NCBI GenBank assembly: GCA_913055885.1
Contig: CAJXLG010000003.1
Location: 1 to 39,859 of the forward strand
Reading direction: 5' to 3'
Origin: an uncultured Rhodospirillales bacterium
GTDB lineage: Bacteria; Pseudomonadota; Alphaproteobacteria; Rhodospirillales; CAJXLG01
Length of the DNA: 39,859 nucleotides
Positions 15,061-24,000 of this stretch are shown one piece after another. Numbering within the stretch: position 1 is the stretch's first letter; each line of letters opens with the position of its first letter. Below the pieces are notes generated by a model. It made no database searches. It was not told the origin of the DNA and saw only the letters and a program-made list of their open reading frames with translations. The position numbers were made by a program, and so were the translations under genes.

Positions 15061-18000
15061 GACGAATCGCCTTGTTCATCCCGGCCGTAGGTTTCCAACA
15101 GGGCGGCCACCGACTCTTCGTCCATGGAGGCCAGGGTGTCGAAATCCAGGTCGGCCGCGTCCGGCGTCGCGGGCGCGCCGCTCGCCCCGGCGCGCGTCGC
15201 GCCCGCCGTGTCCGACGGGGCGAGGACGGTTCCCAGAAGGTGGTCGGCGATGGCCTCGACCGTCGGATGGTCGAACAGCAGATGGGCCGGCAGCTCGGTG
15301 CCACACAGGGCCGACAACCGGTTGCGCAGGTTCAGGGCCATGAGGGAATCCAGGCCCAGGTCCACCAGCGGCTCCCCGACCGGCAGCCGCTCGGGGTCGG
15401 CGTAGCCGAAAATCGTGGCGGCCTCGGCGCGCACGGCCTTGACGGTTTCCGGGCGGCGGCGGGGCGCGGGCAGCCCGGCCAGGCGCGTGGCCAGGTCGGT
15501 CCCGGGTGCCTCCGGCGCCGCCGGCGCCTCGGCCTCCGCCGGTTGTGCCGACGGCTCGTGTTGCGGCGCCGCCGTCGCCCGGAACAGGGCGCGCCCCCGG
15601 TCGCCCGGATTGCCCGCCACGTAGGCGGACCAGTCGGCGGGCAGCAGCAGGGGGGCCACCGCTGTTCCGGTCATGGCCGCCTCCATGGCGTCCAGGGCCT
15701 CCGCCGGTTCCAGGGCGCGGGTGCCGGCGGGCGCGCCCCGGGTGGCGGCGAGGTCGGCGGCCGCGCCGACCCGGGCCCAGCCGCCCCAGTGCAGGGCCAT
15801 GCCGGGCAGGCCCTCGGCCCGCCGGCGGGCGGCCAGGGAGTCCAGCACCGCGTTGGCGGCGGCGTGGTTGGCCTGTCCGGGCGGTCCCAGGGTGGCCGTG
15901 GCCGACGAGAAGAGCACGAAATGCGCCACCGGGTGGTCGCGGCTCAACCGGTCGAGCACCGCCGCGCCGGCCACCTTGGCGTGCAGCACCCGGGCGAAGC
16001 GCTCCGGGGTCTGGGTGGCCAGGACGCCGTCGTCGAGGACGCCGGCGGCGTGGACGATGCCCGTCACCGGGCCCGCCTCGGCGAAGAGGGCGGCCATGGC
16101 GTCGGCGTCGGCGCAGTCGCCCGCCCGCACCAGCACCTCGGCGTCCACGGCGGCGAGCGCCTCGCCCTGGTCGGGGGCCGGTTCGCCGCGCCGGCTCACC
16201 AGGACGATCCGGTGCGCCCCGCGCTCGGCCAGGCGGCCGGCGACCAGGGGCCCCAGGCCGCCCAGGCCGCCGGTGACGATCCAGGTGCCGCCCGCCAGGG
16301 CCAGGCGGCCGTCGGGCGGCGGGACCTCGGCGGCCAGGCGTGGCGTCAGCCAGCGGTCGCCGCGCAGGGCCGCCTCGTCGGCGTCGCCGCGCGCCATCCA
16401 GGCGTCCAGCGCTTGGCGTTGGGCCTCGACGGGGCGGGCCGGGTCGAGGTCCACCAACCCGCCGAGGGTCTCGGGGTGCTCGCGGGCCAGGACGCGGCCC
16501 AGCCCCCAGGCCGCCGCCCCGGCGGGCGACGGGGCGTCGTCCGGCGTGACGGCCATGGCCCCGTGGGTCACCAGCCACAGGCGGCCGGGGTCCGGCTCCG
16601 CCAGTGCGTCCAGCACGGGCCGGACGGCCGCCAGCGCCGCCTCGGCCAACGGGGCCCGGGGATCCGGCGCCGCCATGACGACGCGGTCCCCGTCGGCCCG
16701 GGCCGGCGGCGTGCCGGCCGCGGAGGCCGCCGCCTTGCGCGCCAGGAACAGCGCCTGGTCGGGCAGGCCCCCGGCCTCGGGATCGGAAACGGTGCGCACG
16801 GCGTCGAAACCGGCGTCGGCCAGCAGCGTGCGCCACGTGGCGGCCGGGACGAGGGCATGGTCCGGCCGCAGGTCCGTGTCGGCAAAGGCCCACCAGCCCG
16901 GGGTCTGGCCGAAGACGAGGTCGAAGCGCAGGCGCCGCACCACCACTTCGAGAAGCACCAGCGCGCCGCCGGGGGCGAGGAGCCGGGCGGCGTGGTCGAG
17001 CGCGCGCCGCAGGTCCGGGGTGGCGTGGATGACGTTGGCGGCCACCACCACGTCGAAGGTGCCCGGCTGGAAGCCCTGCTCCTCCGGCGGTCGCGCGATA
17101 TCGAGCACGGCGCCGCGCACCGCCGGATGGTCGGGCGCCGCCGGCAGGAAGGCGGGCGACACGTCGGTGAACACATAGTCCGCCGGCGCGCCGGGCAGGG
17201 CGTCCAGCAGATGCGCCGTGGTACCGGCGGTGCCGCCGCCGATTTCCAGCACGCGCAGGCGGCGTTCCGCCGGCCAGTCCGCCAGGAGGCCGGCCAGGCT
17301 CCGGCCGGCCAGGGCGTTGAGGCGGTCGGCCAGGGGCGCCTCGCGGTACAGCCCGCTCAGGGAGTCGTCGGCGAACAGGACGTCCACGCCCTCCGCCCGG
17401 CCGGCCAGCACGTCGGGCAGGCTTTCCAGGGCGCGCTCGAGGAGGGCGATTTCGCCGGCAAAGGCCGGCTCCTCGCGGGCCAGGGCGTTGAGGCTGTCGG
17501 CCGGCGGCGCCTCCCCCTCCGGGGCCACGGCGGCGAGGCGCCCGGCCAGGCGGCGCAGCGCGTCGGGCACGGCGTCGGACGGCACCGGAACCCCGGCGAG
17601 GGCCGCGCGGCAGGCCGCGTCCACCCGGTCCAGGAAGGCGTTCCAGGTCTCCGTGCCGGCCAGGATGTCGGCGGTGTCCAGGGGCAGGTCGGCGGGGTCG
17701 GGGAAGCGCGGCCCTTCGGCCGCCGGCCCCGCGTCCTGCCACGTTACGCCGTGAATCAGCGGCATGTCGGCGCCGGTCGCGGCGTCGTCGGGCGCGTCGA
17801 TGGGCAGGCCCGCCACCCAGGCGTATTGGCGCTGGAAGGGGTAGGTGGGCAGGGGCTCGTCGAGGGGCGGTGTATTCCGGAAGAGGGCGCGGGGGTCGGG
17901 TTTGGGGCCGGCGGCGTACAGGGCGGCTGCCGTGTCGGCCAGCGCCGCCCGTGCGTCCAGGGCGGGGCGCAGGGTGGCGATGCCGGCGCGCGGCGCCGGG

Positions 18001-21000: not shown

Positions 21001-24000
21001 ATGCCGCCCCCCTCCCACGGCCCCCACGCCACGCAAAGCCCGGCGAGCCCGCGCGCCCGACGGTGCTCCGCAAGCCCTTCCAGGACCTGGTTCGCCGCCC
21101 CGTAAACCGCCTGGCCCGCCGAGCCCCAGACACCCGCCACCGAGCCGTAGTGCACCAGCCAGTCCAGGCGCCGGCCCGCCCCCTCCACGTGCGTCGCCAG
21201 CGCCTCTTCCAGCGCAAGCGCCGTCGCCACCTTCGCGTCGAACGCCTCGTCCACCAGGTCCGCGTCCGTCGCCGCCGCCGACGCGAAACGCCCCGTCCCC
21301 GCGACGTGCGCCACACCGGCAAGGTCCGGCGCCAGCTCCGCGACGATGTCGCCCAGCGCGGCCGGCGTCGCCGCCTGCCGGTAGTCGACGCCGACCGGCG
21401 GCGCGGCAACCGGCCGCCGCCCCACCGCGACCACGCGCCCCGCGCCCGCCGACGCAAGCGCTTCCGCAAGGCGCCAGCCCAGCGCCCCGCTGCCCCCCGT
21501 CACCAAATAGCTCCCCCGGGACCGGACCGGCGGCCACGCCGCCGCCGCCGGCGGCGCCGGAAGCGCCTCCAGCCGCGCCACCCGGCACGTCCCGTCGCGC
21601 ACCGCCACCTCCCGTTCCGCGCCGTCCAGCCGCCCCAGCGCACGGCCCACCAACAACGCTGCGTCCGCCGCAACGTCCCCGGCCGGCAGGTCGATCAGCC
21701 CCGCCCACGTGTCGGGATGTTCCAGCGCCGCGCTGCGCCCGAACCCCCAAAGCGCCGCCTGCAACGCGCCACCGGCGTCCACGTCGCCCCCCGCGGCCCG
21801 CCGCGCGCCCCGCGTCACCACCGCCACCGGCCCCGATCCCGCTTCCAGCCAGCCCGCGAGCGTCATCAGGTCGGCCCGCACCCCCGCCATGTCCGTCCGG
21901 TCCGCCGCCACGAGAAGCCGCCCGGGCCCCCCGTCGTCCAGACCCGCCCGCACCGCAGAGGCCACCGGCCCCTCGCCGTAAACCGTCCAGCCCCCCGAGA
22001 AAGCCGGCGCCGCCCCCTCGGCCGCCGGCCACGTCACGCGCCAGAGCGGCACACCGCCCCCCGTCGCCGACGGCGCCGGCGCCTCCAGCCAGTGCCGCCG
22101 CCGCTGAAACGCGTACCCCGGAAGGCGCCGCTTGCGGCCATCCGCCCCCAGCCAGGCCGTCCAGTCCAGCGACCCCCCGGCGCACCACAACGCTCCCAGA
22201 CCGCGCGCCAGGTCGTGCCGCTCGTCCCCGCCGGGACGCGGCTGAAGCGCGATGCCCCGCGCATCCGGTCCCAGCGCCCCCGCAAGGCCGGCAAGGCCGC
22301 GCCCCGGCCCGACCTCAACGAAACGCCGGTGCCCCGCCTCGTAAAGCGTCCGCAGACCGGCATCCATCTGAACCGGCGACCGCATGTGCCGCAGCCAGTA
22401 CGCCGCGTCCGGCGCCGCCACGTGCCACCCCCCGTCCACGTTGGAGATGACCCCGAGCCGCGGCGCCGCCATGGCCACCCCCGAAAGCGCCGCCCCGAAA
22501 TCGTCCTCGCACGGCGCCATCAGCGGCGAGTGAAAAGCGTGCGAAACATCCAGAAAGCGCACGCGGATGCCCTCCGCCTCAAGACGCGCCCGCGCCGCCG
22601 CGATCGCCTCCGAGGCCCCCGAAAGCGTCACCGCCCGCGGCCCGTTGATCGCCGCAAGACCCGCCCGGTCCTCGTAGCCTTCCAGCGCCGCCCGCGCCCG
22701 CTCGGCGTCGCACGCCGCCGACGCCATGGCCCCGCCCGCCGGCAGCGCCCCCATGGCCCGCGCCCGCGCCGAAACCAGCCGCGCCCCGTCCCCCGGACCC
22801 AGCATGCCGGCCTCCACCGCCGCCACGTACTCGCCCACGCTGTGCCCCAGAAAAGCCGCCGGCGCCACGCCGAGCGCCCGCAGCAGGCGCGAAAGCCCAA
22901 GCGCCACCGCGAAAAGCGCCGGCTGCGTCCAGCGCGTGTCGGAAAGGGCCTCCCCGTCCGAAAGCGCCGCCACCACACCGCCCCCCACCGCCGCGTCCAC
23001 CTCGTCCACAACGGACCGCACCGTGGGCTCGCCTTCGTAAAGCGCAAGCCCCATGCCCGCCACCTGGGCCCCCTGCCCCGGAAACAGGAAAACGCATCCG
23101 GGCCGCGCCCCGGCCACCACCGTGTCCGCCACCGCCGGCGCCTCCATGCCCGGCCCCTCGGGCGCGTCCGCCAGCGCCGAAAGCCCCGCCGCCAGCGTCG
23201 CCGCGTCCGGCCCCACCGCCACGCCCCGCGCCGACAGCGCCGAACGCCCCGCCGCCGCCGTGAAGGCGCCGTCGCGCGCCGCCCGCGCGTCACCGCCGTC
23301 CGCCGCCGCCCGCAGCCACGCCCCGTGACGTTCCGCCTGCGCCGACAGTGCCGCCGCGTCCAGCCCCGAAACAGGCCACACCACCGGACGCCCCGCCGGC
23401 GTTTCCCCGCTCTCGCCGGCCGCGTCCGTCTCGCCGGCCGCGTCCGCCGCCCCGCCCGGCGGCGCCCCCACCACCACGTGGGCGTTGGTGCCGCTCATGC
23501 CGAACGAGCTCACCCCCGCCAGACGCGCCGAAGCCGGCCCGGGCCACGCCGTCGCCTCGTCCGCCACCCGCAACGGCAGCTCCGACCACGCAACGTTGGG
23601 ATTGGGCGCCGAAAAGTGCAGCGACCGCGGCACCACCCCGTGCGCCAGGGCAAGCACCACCTTGATGAGCCCGGCAATCCCCGCCGCCGCTTCCAGATGG
23701 CCCACGTTGGTCTTCACCGACCCCACCAGCAGGGGCGCCTCGCGCCCCGCCATCACCCGGCCCAGCGCCTGCAGCTCGATGCGGTCGCCCAGCGGCGTGC
23801 CGCTGCCGTGGGCTTCCACCATCTGGAGGGCCTCGGCGCCCACGCCGGCCCGTTCCAGGGCATTGGCGATGACGGCCTGTTGCGCCGGGCCATTGGGGGC
23901 CGTGAACCCGTTTGAGCGGCCGTCGTGATTGACGGCGGAGCCGTGGATCACCGCCATGACCGGGTCGCCGTCCCGTCGCGCGTCGTCCAGGCGCTTGAGC

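Follow-up and report, generated by a model that had tools for sequence, protein, structure and literature searches.

[quoted passage not shown] Skewed regions present in single copy also exist, and the Discussion of that paper leaves open whether they are starting material or remnants (PMC8256042). The proposal made in the same passages is that skew originates before gene conversion sets in, and it is put forward there without a test case (PMC8256042). In a separate context, the binding of RecA is reported, in the portion of the source relevant here, to prefer TGG repeats resembling Chi (PMC3763553). We describe here a PKS locus that bears on these proposals. The reading that we favor, and consider rather probable, is that positions 17810-23781 form one GRINS-type cassette, with an old and maintained skew and a probable collapsed second copy, which probably acts as a preferred recombination substrate.

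The window is the whole stretch of 39,859 nucleotides that was analyzed, and corresponds to one whole contig (C3) of an assembly of 2.96 Mb in 393 contigs, with a bin completeness of 88.6%. Its PKS genes lie on the minus strand and comprise gene B (15057..24866; 3269 aa), with Pfam domains in the order KS-AT-KR-ACP-KS-AT-cMT-KR-ACP, gene A (3031..15060; 4009 aa), which has two modules and is unskewed (mean |GC skew| 0.060), and the 5' part of gene C (1..3212; KS-AT), which continues on contig C134 with the remaining KR-ACP-sulfotransferase-esterase. A divergent gene on the plus strand (25356..29297) encodes AMP-binding, acyl-CoA dehydrogenase and carrier protein functions, likely as a starter-unit loader, and also adjoins the related cluster of Roseovarius discussed below. 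PKS contigs in the assembly are C3, C134 and a third, C53, with none other. The first-pass annotation had correctly placed the skew on the plus strand, but its placing of the PKS genes has to be corrected to the minus strand: the plus-strand open reading frames over the PKS genes (15072-23915 and 3235-15090) contain no Pfam families, and are therefore read as antisense artefacts of GC-rich DNA rather than as real genes. No tRNA genes or Rfam families were found within the window.

The skewed cassette (17993..23777, minus strand) occupies codons 364-2292 of gene B and encodes the C-terminal part of KS1, AT1, KR1, ACP1, KS2 and the entire AT2. On the plus strand its GC skew is about -0.25 and its AT skew about +0.21, and because the gene is on the minus strand, the coding strand is G+T-rich, with G in excess of C and T in excess of A. 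Maximum-likelihood change points at codon position 3 fall at 23777 and at either 17993 (GC) or 18011 (G+T); the length between change points is 5,785 nt, well over 500 bp. The plus-strand excess of C over G and of A over T noted earlier for about 18000-23760 is thus confirmed, as is a span from late KS1 into AT2, although AT2 is covered completely and not just for the most part, and 'about one module' is an understatement for a segment that spans one and a half. The plus-strand GC skew is between -0.21 and -0.30 in nine consecutive 600-nt windows (18001-23400), and in 600-nt windows outside 18001-24000 |GC skew| never exceeds 0.145. At 150-nt resolution the sign flips at both edges, from +0.30 (17851-18000) to -0.22 (18001-18150) at one, and from -0.20 (23701-23850) to +0.09 (23851-24000) at the other. 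Directly beyond the cassette is a tail of reversed skew (17810..17992, minus strand), where the coding strand is C+A-rich and encodes the post-AT linker of module 2; this tail and the cassette are parts of one unit.

Coding-strand GC skew is positive in all 191 of the 150-nt windows of the cassette (step 30), for which mean |GC skew| is 0.249 and mean |TA skew| 0.229, compared with 0.054-0.084 and 0.123-0.167 respectively in other PKS sequence. Both means thus lie above the 0.15 of the GRINS definition, skew is maximal at the third codon position, and Gly and Val are raised while Pro and Thr are lowered; the DNA concerned is coding DNA of an assembly-line PKS, with Pfam KS, AT, KR, ACP, KS and AT on the minus strand. 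The skew is the strongest across the assembly, the cassette holding 10 of the 19 windows with |GC skew| above 0.15 (1.5-kb windows, n=4,941), and the sliding-window and codon analyses proposed with the first-pass annotation clearly set it apart from the rest of the PKS. GC content stays at 0.75-0.82 without change across the cassette edges and the frame is open throughout, both as previously noted. Both GC and TA skew are positive all along the cassette, and they are correlated with r = +0.18 inside it, +0.48 in gene B and +0.40 over the three PKS genes. The coding strand of the cassette is 62% G+T, with GTG and GGT at about twice their frequency in the flanks and TGG barely enriched (38.7 against 32.5 per kb). 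Comparison of the two cassette edges revealed no direct or inverted repeats (scores of 11.5 and 11.0, shuffles giving 10.4 +/- 1.2 with a maximum of 16.5), and a transposon-like insertion was rejected, any terminal repeats being within the shuffle range.

The bias resides mostly in silent third positions, where NNC gives way to NNG and also, after G or T, to NNT; in part it reflects amino-acid choice. GC skew at codon positions 1, 2 and 3 is +0.35, -0.17 and +0.44 inside the cassette, and +0.23, -0.28 and -0.15 outside. The four codons to which a switch had been reported are all enriched in comparison with the outside (GCG 0.83 vs 0.33, GGG 0.57 vs 0.23, TTT 0.33 vs 0.06, CTT 0.25 vs 0.04), NAC codons are unchanged, and amino-acid frequencies shift as well (Gly 0.140 vs 0.104, Val 0.084 vs 0.075, Pro 0.061 vs 0.084, Thr 0.034 vs 0.046); all six domains are still recognizable despite the bias. 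The skew is far beyond chance: when the cassette protein was recoded to follow codon usage elsewhere in the PKS sequence, GC skew was 0.027 +/- 0.008 with a maximum of 0.053 in 1000 draws, compared with the 0.249 observed. Likewise, the GC3 skew of the cassette is +0.449, against -0.137 +/- 0.078 in 891 putative genes of the assembly; the PKS flanks fit this host baseline, and the bias is absent both from the flanks and from the other genes of the host.

A three-gene cluster of Roseovarius aestuarii, an isolate genome of a different order, matches genes B, A and C in collinear order with 54-57% protein identity, and the counterpart of gene B is situated on a 227-kb contig with the same domain order. 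In both orthologs the skew starts around alignment columns 330-400 and stops around 2200-2300; their G+T fractions are 0.620 and 0.618, and both have a reversed piece directly after, that of Roseovarius (L011 16501-16800) having a GC skew of -0.49 and a TA skew of -0.54. DNA identity of the cassette to the homologous PKS is 64.8%, and domain-matched protein identity to Roseovarius is 68.8% inside and 69.2% outside the cassette for KS, and 64.4% and 60.5% for KR. The third base matches at a fraction of 0.517 of 782 four-fold sites with identical residues, where 0.465 is expected if the two are independent, and by this estimate silent sites are about 90% turned over between the two orthologs. 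We infer that the skew is old and has been actively maintained in both lineages, and is not the relic of an import. No duplicate of the skewed segment was found in the R. aestuarii genome, where it is single-copy, and because the skew exists there without a partner, repeat homogenization cannot maintain it in that genome.

Among 201 sampled genomes of the Roseovarius family, an ortholog-level match is found in one, the R. aestuarii genome itself; none was found in the other 200 or in 300 other genomes of the order of the window, in which matches are to the AT part only. A metagenome scan with the cassette protein gave no relative, and one with a two-sequence alignment gave 78 loci of generic PKS type (33-49% identity) that included no ortholog. 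The latter served as control only, and of the 77 that were at least 3 kb (one being dropped for length), two contain a same-sign GC-skew run of at least 3 kb, L088 (4.5 kb) and L078 (3.6 kb), both with little TA skew; L088 is skewed along its whole contig.

These comparisons bear on the fallback offered by the first-pass annotation, namely import from a donor with a different codon bias, in the form of a mosaic in which one and a half modules came by horizontal transfer from a donor preferring G-ending codons and are as yet unadapted. The sharp edges at domain junctions are in keeping with this, as are the similar third-position composition of the segment in two hosts of unlike GC content, the GC content of 0.70 of the Roseovarius segment in surroundings of 0.58-0.62, and the sporadic occurrence of the cluster among sampled genomes; such donors may also exist, since the unrelated L088 is G-skewed over its entire 10.3 kb. 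We nonetheless consider import improbable. The skew is shared with Roseovarius, and the segment shows no greater similarity between the two genomes than its flanks; with a divergence equal to theirs, it was already in place in the common ancestor, and the silent-site turnover would have erased an imported bias, with the flanks in the window genome standing at the host norm. In addition, the use of GGG for 57% of Gly and CTT for 25% of Leu, with NAC unchanged, looks like strand bias rather than the codon usage of an organism, and searches of 185,579 species genomes and of the metagenome collection turned up no closer relative.

In the window genome, the search for a copy of the cassette of more than 80% identity across the assembly found no separate one, the best match over more than 500 bp being 64-67% identical, and a single short match of 94% covers just 135 nt at the end of C53; the description as GRINS-like thus holds for composition, but not for a duplicate as a separate copy. 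However, the prediction of an unseen partner is indirectly supported by C53, whose two ends overlap the window exactly at the two edges, even though no copy itself is seen. Junction X (23705..23781, minus strand) is an exact 77-nt overlap with the 3' end of C53 in the N-terminal part of a KS; it starts 4 nt from the 5' skew change point of the cassette, and just upstream C53 is only ~60-65% identical to the window. Junction Y (17810..17885, minus strand) is an exact 76-nt overlap with the 5' end of C53 at the end of the post-AT linker, past which the paths split, the window leading to cMT and C53 to DH. Both junctions are in frame, and they are situated 4 nt and ~10 nt from the compositional edges. 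An exact match of at least 50 nt elsewhere is present at 97 of the 786 contig ends, and is 77 nt long in 78 and 76 nt long in three of the 97; because 77-nt matches predominate, an overlap of this length is the assembler's junction signature. As C3, C53 and C134 are the only PKS contigs, nothing else could complete the two truncated genes of C53. Overlaps at both edges are what a repeat collapsed by the assembler would produce, and judging from contig ends only, the cassette is probably present as such a repeat in a second context, where the KS that ends C53 would flank it on one side and the DH-ER-KR-ACP that begins C53 on the other.

Counting against a repeat is the assembly of C3 straight through the cassette. 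It is not normal for an assembler to pass through an unresolved 6-kb repeat of equal coverage, so C53 may represent a minor strain, or else its real neighbors may be absent from the incomplete bin. The KS1 of the window is 68% identical to that of Roseovarius and the C53 KS only 56%, so that of the two arrangements only that of the window is orthologous to the Roseovarius gene; the best of the longer relatives found for the first truncated gene of C53 are 32-43% identical. Instead, the intense skew could belong to a region present only once, as a proto- or relic GRINS; the C53 overlaps would then be short shared stretches at conserved KS and post-AT-linker motifs, and the C53 neighbors would be missing from the bin. 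In favor of this are the assembly of C3 through the segment, a bin of 393 contigs and 88.6% completeness, and the lack of a separate copy above 67% identity over more than 500 bp in the assembly; moreover, the skew of Roseovarius is in one copy, and such regions are on record in the part of PMC8256042 considered here. On the other hand, the C53 ends lie 4 and ~10 nt from the compositional edges, for which chance 77-mers give no reason. Read pairs are longer than an exact repeat of 77-135 nt, and an assembler normally resolves such a repeat, in which case C53 would extend into its own continuation, and there is no other PKS contig to supply one. Taken together, we regard a single copy as rather unlikely.

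An assembly chimera, in which a PKS segment of another organism was spliced into C3 at shared k-mers, might be suspected given that a fragmented metagenome bin supplied the window, as one entire contig, and that graph junctions are found at both edges of the segment. This is hardly credible, because the isolate R. aestuarii has the same gene, domain order, skew and place on its 227-kb contig, and because frame and domain order are continuous and GC content constant across the edges.

The GRINS-type reading that we favor has the following form. The cassette consists of ~5.8 kb with a G+T-rich coding strand followed by a C+A-rich tail of ~180 nt; it begins in the C-terminal half of KS1 and ends with the module 2 post-AT linker. 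It very probably has a second context on C53, and would then be a near-identical repeat of ~6 kb that the assembler collapsed. Junctions in KS and at the post-AT linker are known recombination sites of PKS modules, and the cassette edges appear to fall at these junctions. The G+T-rich strand probably favors homologous pairing and gene conversion, by which the cassette would be copied between modules, with the involvement of RecA suggested by analogy. A more specific proposal, which we advance tentatively as a possibility that could well prove wrong, is that the skew is intrinsic to the cassette and actively maintained, that the process generating it comes first and is independent of repeat homogenization, and that the G+T strand promotes copying, which seems to have taken place in the window genome. 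If this were true, the order of events left open by the GRINS authors would be settled, and the two genomes would offer a natural matched pair in the search for a mechanism.

An orthologous cassette is thus skewed in two distant genomes, present once in the first of them, R. aestuarii, and probably duplicated in the second, where the apparent edges of the duplication coincide with the compositional edges to within ~10 nt. This makes the locus a test case for the proposal of skew first and gene conversion later, as laid out in the part of PMC8256042 considered here. It would extend the GRINS phenomenon beyond the actinobacteria and to a length of ~6 kb, covering one and a half modules, and for PKS engineering, the middle of KS and the end of the post-AT linker would mark a naturally used swap unit.

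In comparison with published GRINS, as far as the cited parts of the sources describe them, the cassette is similarly positioned inside a cis-AT assembly-line PKS and covers KS-AT, and its GC and TA skews both exceed 0.15 and have the same sign. A G+T-rich AT with a C+A-rich post-AT linker is also seen in the tylactone synthase example (PMC8256042), and the 64.8% DNA identity to the homologous PKS is within the 45-75% range given there (PMC8256042). It differs in that its partner copy is deduced from contig ends, and in its length of ~5.8-6.0 kb, GRINS being 'mostly 0.3 to 1.4 kb' in the main text of PMC8256042 and 'approximately 1 kbp' in PMC10394414; judged against these main-text figures, the sequence qualifies as an unusually long GRINS-type example. 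The skew keeps one sign for all of its 5.8 kb, abrupt flips being frequent in published GRINS, and the correlation of +0.18 inside the cassette is well below the 0.70 reported (PMC8256042). The host is not an actinobacterium but, on weak hints, probably a member of the Pseudomonadota, in which GRINS are called rare (PMC8256042); the skew is also kept in an ortholog of another order, although GRINS are presented as recent and PKS-specific (PMC8256042). Single-copy skewed regions are matched exactly by the Roseovarius ortholog, and by the window too if C53 is set aside, but the ortholog pair differs from them in showing a skew that has outlasted near-saturation of silent sites. The likeness to Chi and to the TGG repeats favored by RecA (PMC3763553, in its relevant portion) is a mere resemblance in the possible action of the 62% G+T strand. 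Finally, the cassette is akin to gene-converted or duplicated KS-AT cassettes both in its edges, one within the C-terminal half of KS and the other where the post-AT linker ends, and in the diverged flanks beside a shared stretch (61% protein identity between the N-terminal KS parts), but it is distinguished from them by its extent of one and a half modules and by its strong strand skew.

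Skew in the assembly is strongest in a cassette within PKS gene B. Of 4,941 windows of 1.5 kb, 19 have |GC skew| >0.15, and 10 of them lie in this cassette. Gene B (24866 to 15057, minus strand) encodes a 3269-aa protein with KS1 (residues 46–418), AT1 (592–854), KR1 (1118–1285), ACP1 (1389–1454), KS2 (1479–1842), AT2 (2000–2285), cMT (2540–2636), KR2 (2860–3031) and ACP2 (3144–3210); both ATs contain the motif HAFH, which we take as a sign of malonyl specificity. On the + strand, GC skew is -0.21 to -0.30 and AT skew +0.04 to +0.36 across nine consecutive 600-nt windows (18001–23400), whereas GC skew is no greater than |0.145| in every 600-nt window of the contig outside 18001–24000. 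Because the genes are on the minus strand, the coding strand of the cassette has G in excess of C and T in excess of A, and its GC skew is positive in 191 of 191 150-nt windows. Mean |GC skew| is 0.249 in the cassette compared to 0.054–0.084 in other PKS sequence, and mean |TA skew| is 0.229 compared to 0.123–0.167. The sign reverses within a single 150-nt window at each end, and change points on third codon positions fall at 23777 and 17993, corresponding to codons 364–2292 of gene B. The + strand skew that the first-pass annotation had placed at about 18000–23760 is thus borne out by both sliding-window skew and change points.

At third codon positions, GC skew is +0.44 in the cassette but -0.15 over the remainder of gene B and -0.13 over gene A; codon positions 1 and 2 show smaller shifts. 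Over the 891 putative genes of the assembly GC3 skew is -0.137 +/- 0.078; gene B has the highest value (0.194; +0.449 for the cassette alone), and the PKS flanks of the cassette are at the host norm. G-ending codons substitute for C-ending ones wherever the genetic code permits, with shares inside versus outside of 0.83 and 0.33 (GCG), 0.90 and 0.42 (ACG), 0.82 and 0.54 (CCG), 0.70 and 0.32 (TCG), 0.57 and 0.23 (GGG), and 0.65 and 0.40 (CGG), confirming the synonymous switch to G- and T-ending codons noted earlier. T-ending codons increase only where the second base is G or T (CTT, GTT, CGT, GGT, and TTT), and NAC codons retain their C. Among amino acids, Gly, Ala, and Val are raised in the cassette and Pro, Thr, and Asp lowered. 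When the cassette protein was rewritten with the codon usage of other PKS sequence, 1000 draws gave a GC skew of 0.027 +/- 0.008 with a maximum of 0.053, and since recoding leaves only 0.027, silent choice accounts for about nine tenths of the effect. Relative to the flanks, the coding strand of the cassette has about double the frequency of GTG and GGT and about 2.5 times that of GGG, with CCC six-fold rarer.

The long minus-strand reading frames of the region are modular polyketide synthases by Pfam, and those on the + strand over the PKS region match no Pfam family. Gene A (15060 to 3031, minus) encodes two further modules, and gene C (start 3212, minus) extends past the contig end. It continues on contig C134 (L002 2–3889, joined to window 1–75) with KR-ACP-sulfotransferase-esterase, an ending like the sulfotransferase-thioesterase terminus of curacin CurM, and by this analogy the ending suggests a terminal-alkene product. 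On the + strand, 25356–29297 encodes a protein that combines an AMP-binding enzyme, an acyl-CoA dehydrogenase, and a carrier protein; it is likely a fatty-acyl starter loader, and its gene is divergent from gene B. The fall in GC content from 0.74–0.82 to 0.63–0.73 at ~31200 (31200–39859) is the border of the PKS region, past which lie genes for a carbamoyltransferase (31630–33684, minus) and a DegT-type aminotransferase (37685–38785, minus). The assembly is fragmented, its 2.96 Mb being split over 393 contigs, and has 88.6% completeness and 3% contamination; the window is one contig (C3) in full. Just upstream of gene B, an intergenic dispersed repeat of ~100–200 nt (25039–25246) contains a tandemly doubled 25-nt motif and, among the matches listed, is found on 27 other contigs at 85–95% identity, often at very contig ends (28 of 40 rows); it resembles REP or MITE elements and seems to break the assembly. 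Two short multi-copy stretches, 36533–36595 (seven other contigs at 86–94% identity among the matches listed) and 31539–31619 (the ends of C149 and C363 at 97–99%, likewise among those listed), have no tRNA or Rfam family.

When genomes were scanned at one per species, a single close relative emerged, Roseovarius aestuarii G21610-S1. A 227-kb contig (L011) of this strain carries three PKS genes that are collinear counterparts of genes B, A, and C, 54–57% identical in protein sequence. The AMP-binding/acyl-CoA dehydrogenase/carrier-protein gene is common to both clusters (L011 2637–6353), although in Roseovarius it is co-directional with the gene B ortholog, with a P450 gene in between; the gene C ortholog there is 2125 aa and probably has the same type of ending. 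The two organisms belong to different orders, with RecA identity of 70% compared to 75–79% inside the window's own order, and the distribution of the three-gene cluster is sporadic, with no ortholog among 200 other sampled Roseovarius-family genomes or among a further 300 from the window's order.

The Roseovarius ortholog of gene B, at 3165 aa, can be aligned end to end, and its coding strand is skewed in the homologous region (alignment columns ~330–400 to ~2200–2300), with mean |GC skew| of 0.244 and mean |TA skew| of 0.261 (L011 10900–16500). Its post-AT linker contains a 300-nt strongly reversed piece (GC skew -0.49, TA skew -0.54), as does that of the window. The coding-strand G+T fraction is 0.620 in our cassette and 0.618 in that of Roseovarius, whereas it is 0.48–0.50 and 0.54 in the respective flanks. 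Between the two genomes the cassette is no more similar than the flanks, with identities inside and outside of 68.8% and 69.2% for KS, 64.4% and 60.5% for KR, and 66.7% and 55.2% for ACP, and cassette DNA 64.8% identical. At 782 four-fold sites with identical residues, third-base agreement is 0.517 compared to 0.465 expected from composition, so that about nine in ten silent sites have changed since the split, and G is far above C at these sites in both cassettes.

The skew was thus either already present in the cassette inherited by both clusters, or arose twice with the same edges. It is not a fading relic, because a codon bias brought in by import would have eroded as the silent sites turned over, just as happened to the composition of the flanks. 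The fallback offered by the first-pass annotation, a module imported from a donor with different codon bias, is therefore unlikely, and an assembly chimera is unlikely on the same grounds, as the skew is shared by both genomes and kept despite silent-site turnover. A search for a duplicate of the cassette in the Roseovarius genome yielded only KS paralogs (65–67%), and no contig end in that genome joins the cassette; inter-repeat copying therefore cannot maintain the skew there. The Discussion of PMC8256042 proposes, but does not show, that skew comes first and gene conversion after; the cassette fits this order. The preference of RecA for G+T-rich DNA is a possible link from the cassette to recombination, in that a G+T-rich coding strand enriched in GTG, GGT, and GGG could be bound preferentially by RecA. 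Older in-vitro selection work reportedly found such a preference for G+T-rich, Chi-like sequence. In PMC3763553, RecA likewise prefers to bind sequence of this kind.

The five KS regions within the window are 60–81% alike, and no separate near-identical copy of the cassette was found in the whole assembly, where the best match >500 bp is 64–67% identical. However, contig C53 (13,689 nt) contacts the cassette at both of its ends: its last 77 nt match window 23781–23705 exactly, and its first 76 nt match 17885–17810 exactly, both on the coding strand and in frame. We read these overlaps in light of how de Bruijn assemblers behave at repeats. Exact matches of at least 50 nt elsewhere in the assembly occur at 97 of 786 contig ends, with a length of exactly 77 nt in 78 and 76 nt in three, and the 77-nt overlap is a signature of the assembler. 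C53 begins with a 5'-truncated gene (post-AT linker end, then DH-ER-KR-ACP and a stop), where we take a YPFxRxxYW-like motif to be the linker end and HPLL the DH start; a KS-AT-DH-ER-KR-ACP gene follows, and the last gene, 3'-truncated, encodes the N-terminal 370 residues of another KS. Between these lies a stand-alone 751-aa gene (L001 10327–12582) with KS, KS-AT linker, and carrier domain without AT, an AT-less or non-elongating module amid an otherwise cis-AT system. Identity between C53 and the window upstream of the 77-mer is ~60–65%, with higher patches, and it turns perfect 4 nt from the skew change point. Directly downstream of the 76-mer they diverge, the window into cMT and C53 into DH; the preceding 180 nt (18000–17821) have a C+A-rich coding strand, so the compositionally odd unit stops ~10 nt from the C53 junction.

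As the assembly has no PKS contigs besides C3, C53, and C134, the cassette alone can complete the two truncated genes of C53, and the simplest reading is that it is present in two contexts and was collapsed to one by assembly. Against this, the assembly of C3 passes through the cassette without a break, the arrangement in the window is by itself the ortholog of the Roseovarius gene, and the bin is incomplete, so C53 may come from a minor strain or its true neighbors may be absent from the bin. On balance we think it rather probable that a second near-identical copy exists. The partner that had been predicted outside the window is suggested indirectly by junctions at both cassette edges, but not recovered as a sequence of its own.

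The closest known kind of element is GRINS, as had been proposed, and we conclude that the cassette is an unusually long GRINS-type region. Its composition is that of GRINS, but for the duplication that also defines them we have the 64–67% best separate match and the exact 77- and 76-nt C53 overlaps at the edges. It is longer, at 5.8–6.0 kb, than the lengths in the main texts of the published descriptions, 'mostly 0.3 to 1.4 kb' (PMC8256042) and 'approximately 1 kbp' (PMC10394414). It also differs in having one skew sign across its long part, in the conservation of its skew in a distant ortholog, and in its host, probably a member of Pseudomonadota, in which GRINS are described as rare (PMC8256042). 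Among 77 unrelated metagenome PKS loci, two have a same-sign GC-skew run of at least 3 kb, both with little TA skew, and long skewed stretches are therefore uncommon yet not unique. We note that one unrelated metagenome PKS contig (L088, 10,267 nt) is G-skewed by +0.09 to +0.37 over its entire length, and that another (L102) has a GRINS-like 2-kb KS-AT stretch at 2401–4400 with GC and TA skews both of +0.15 to +0.30. What goes beyond the published description of GRINS is a skew common to orthologs that are otherwise saturated at silent sites.
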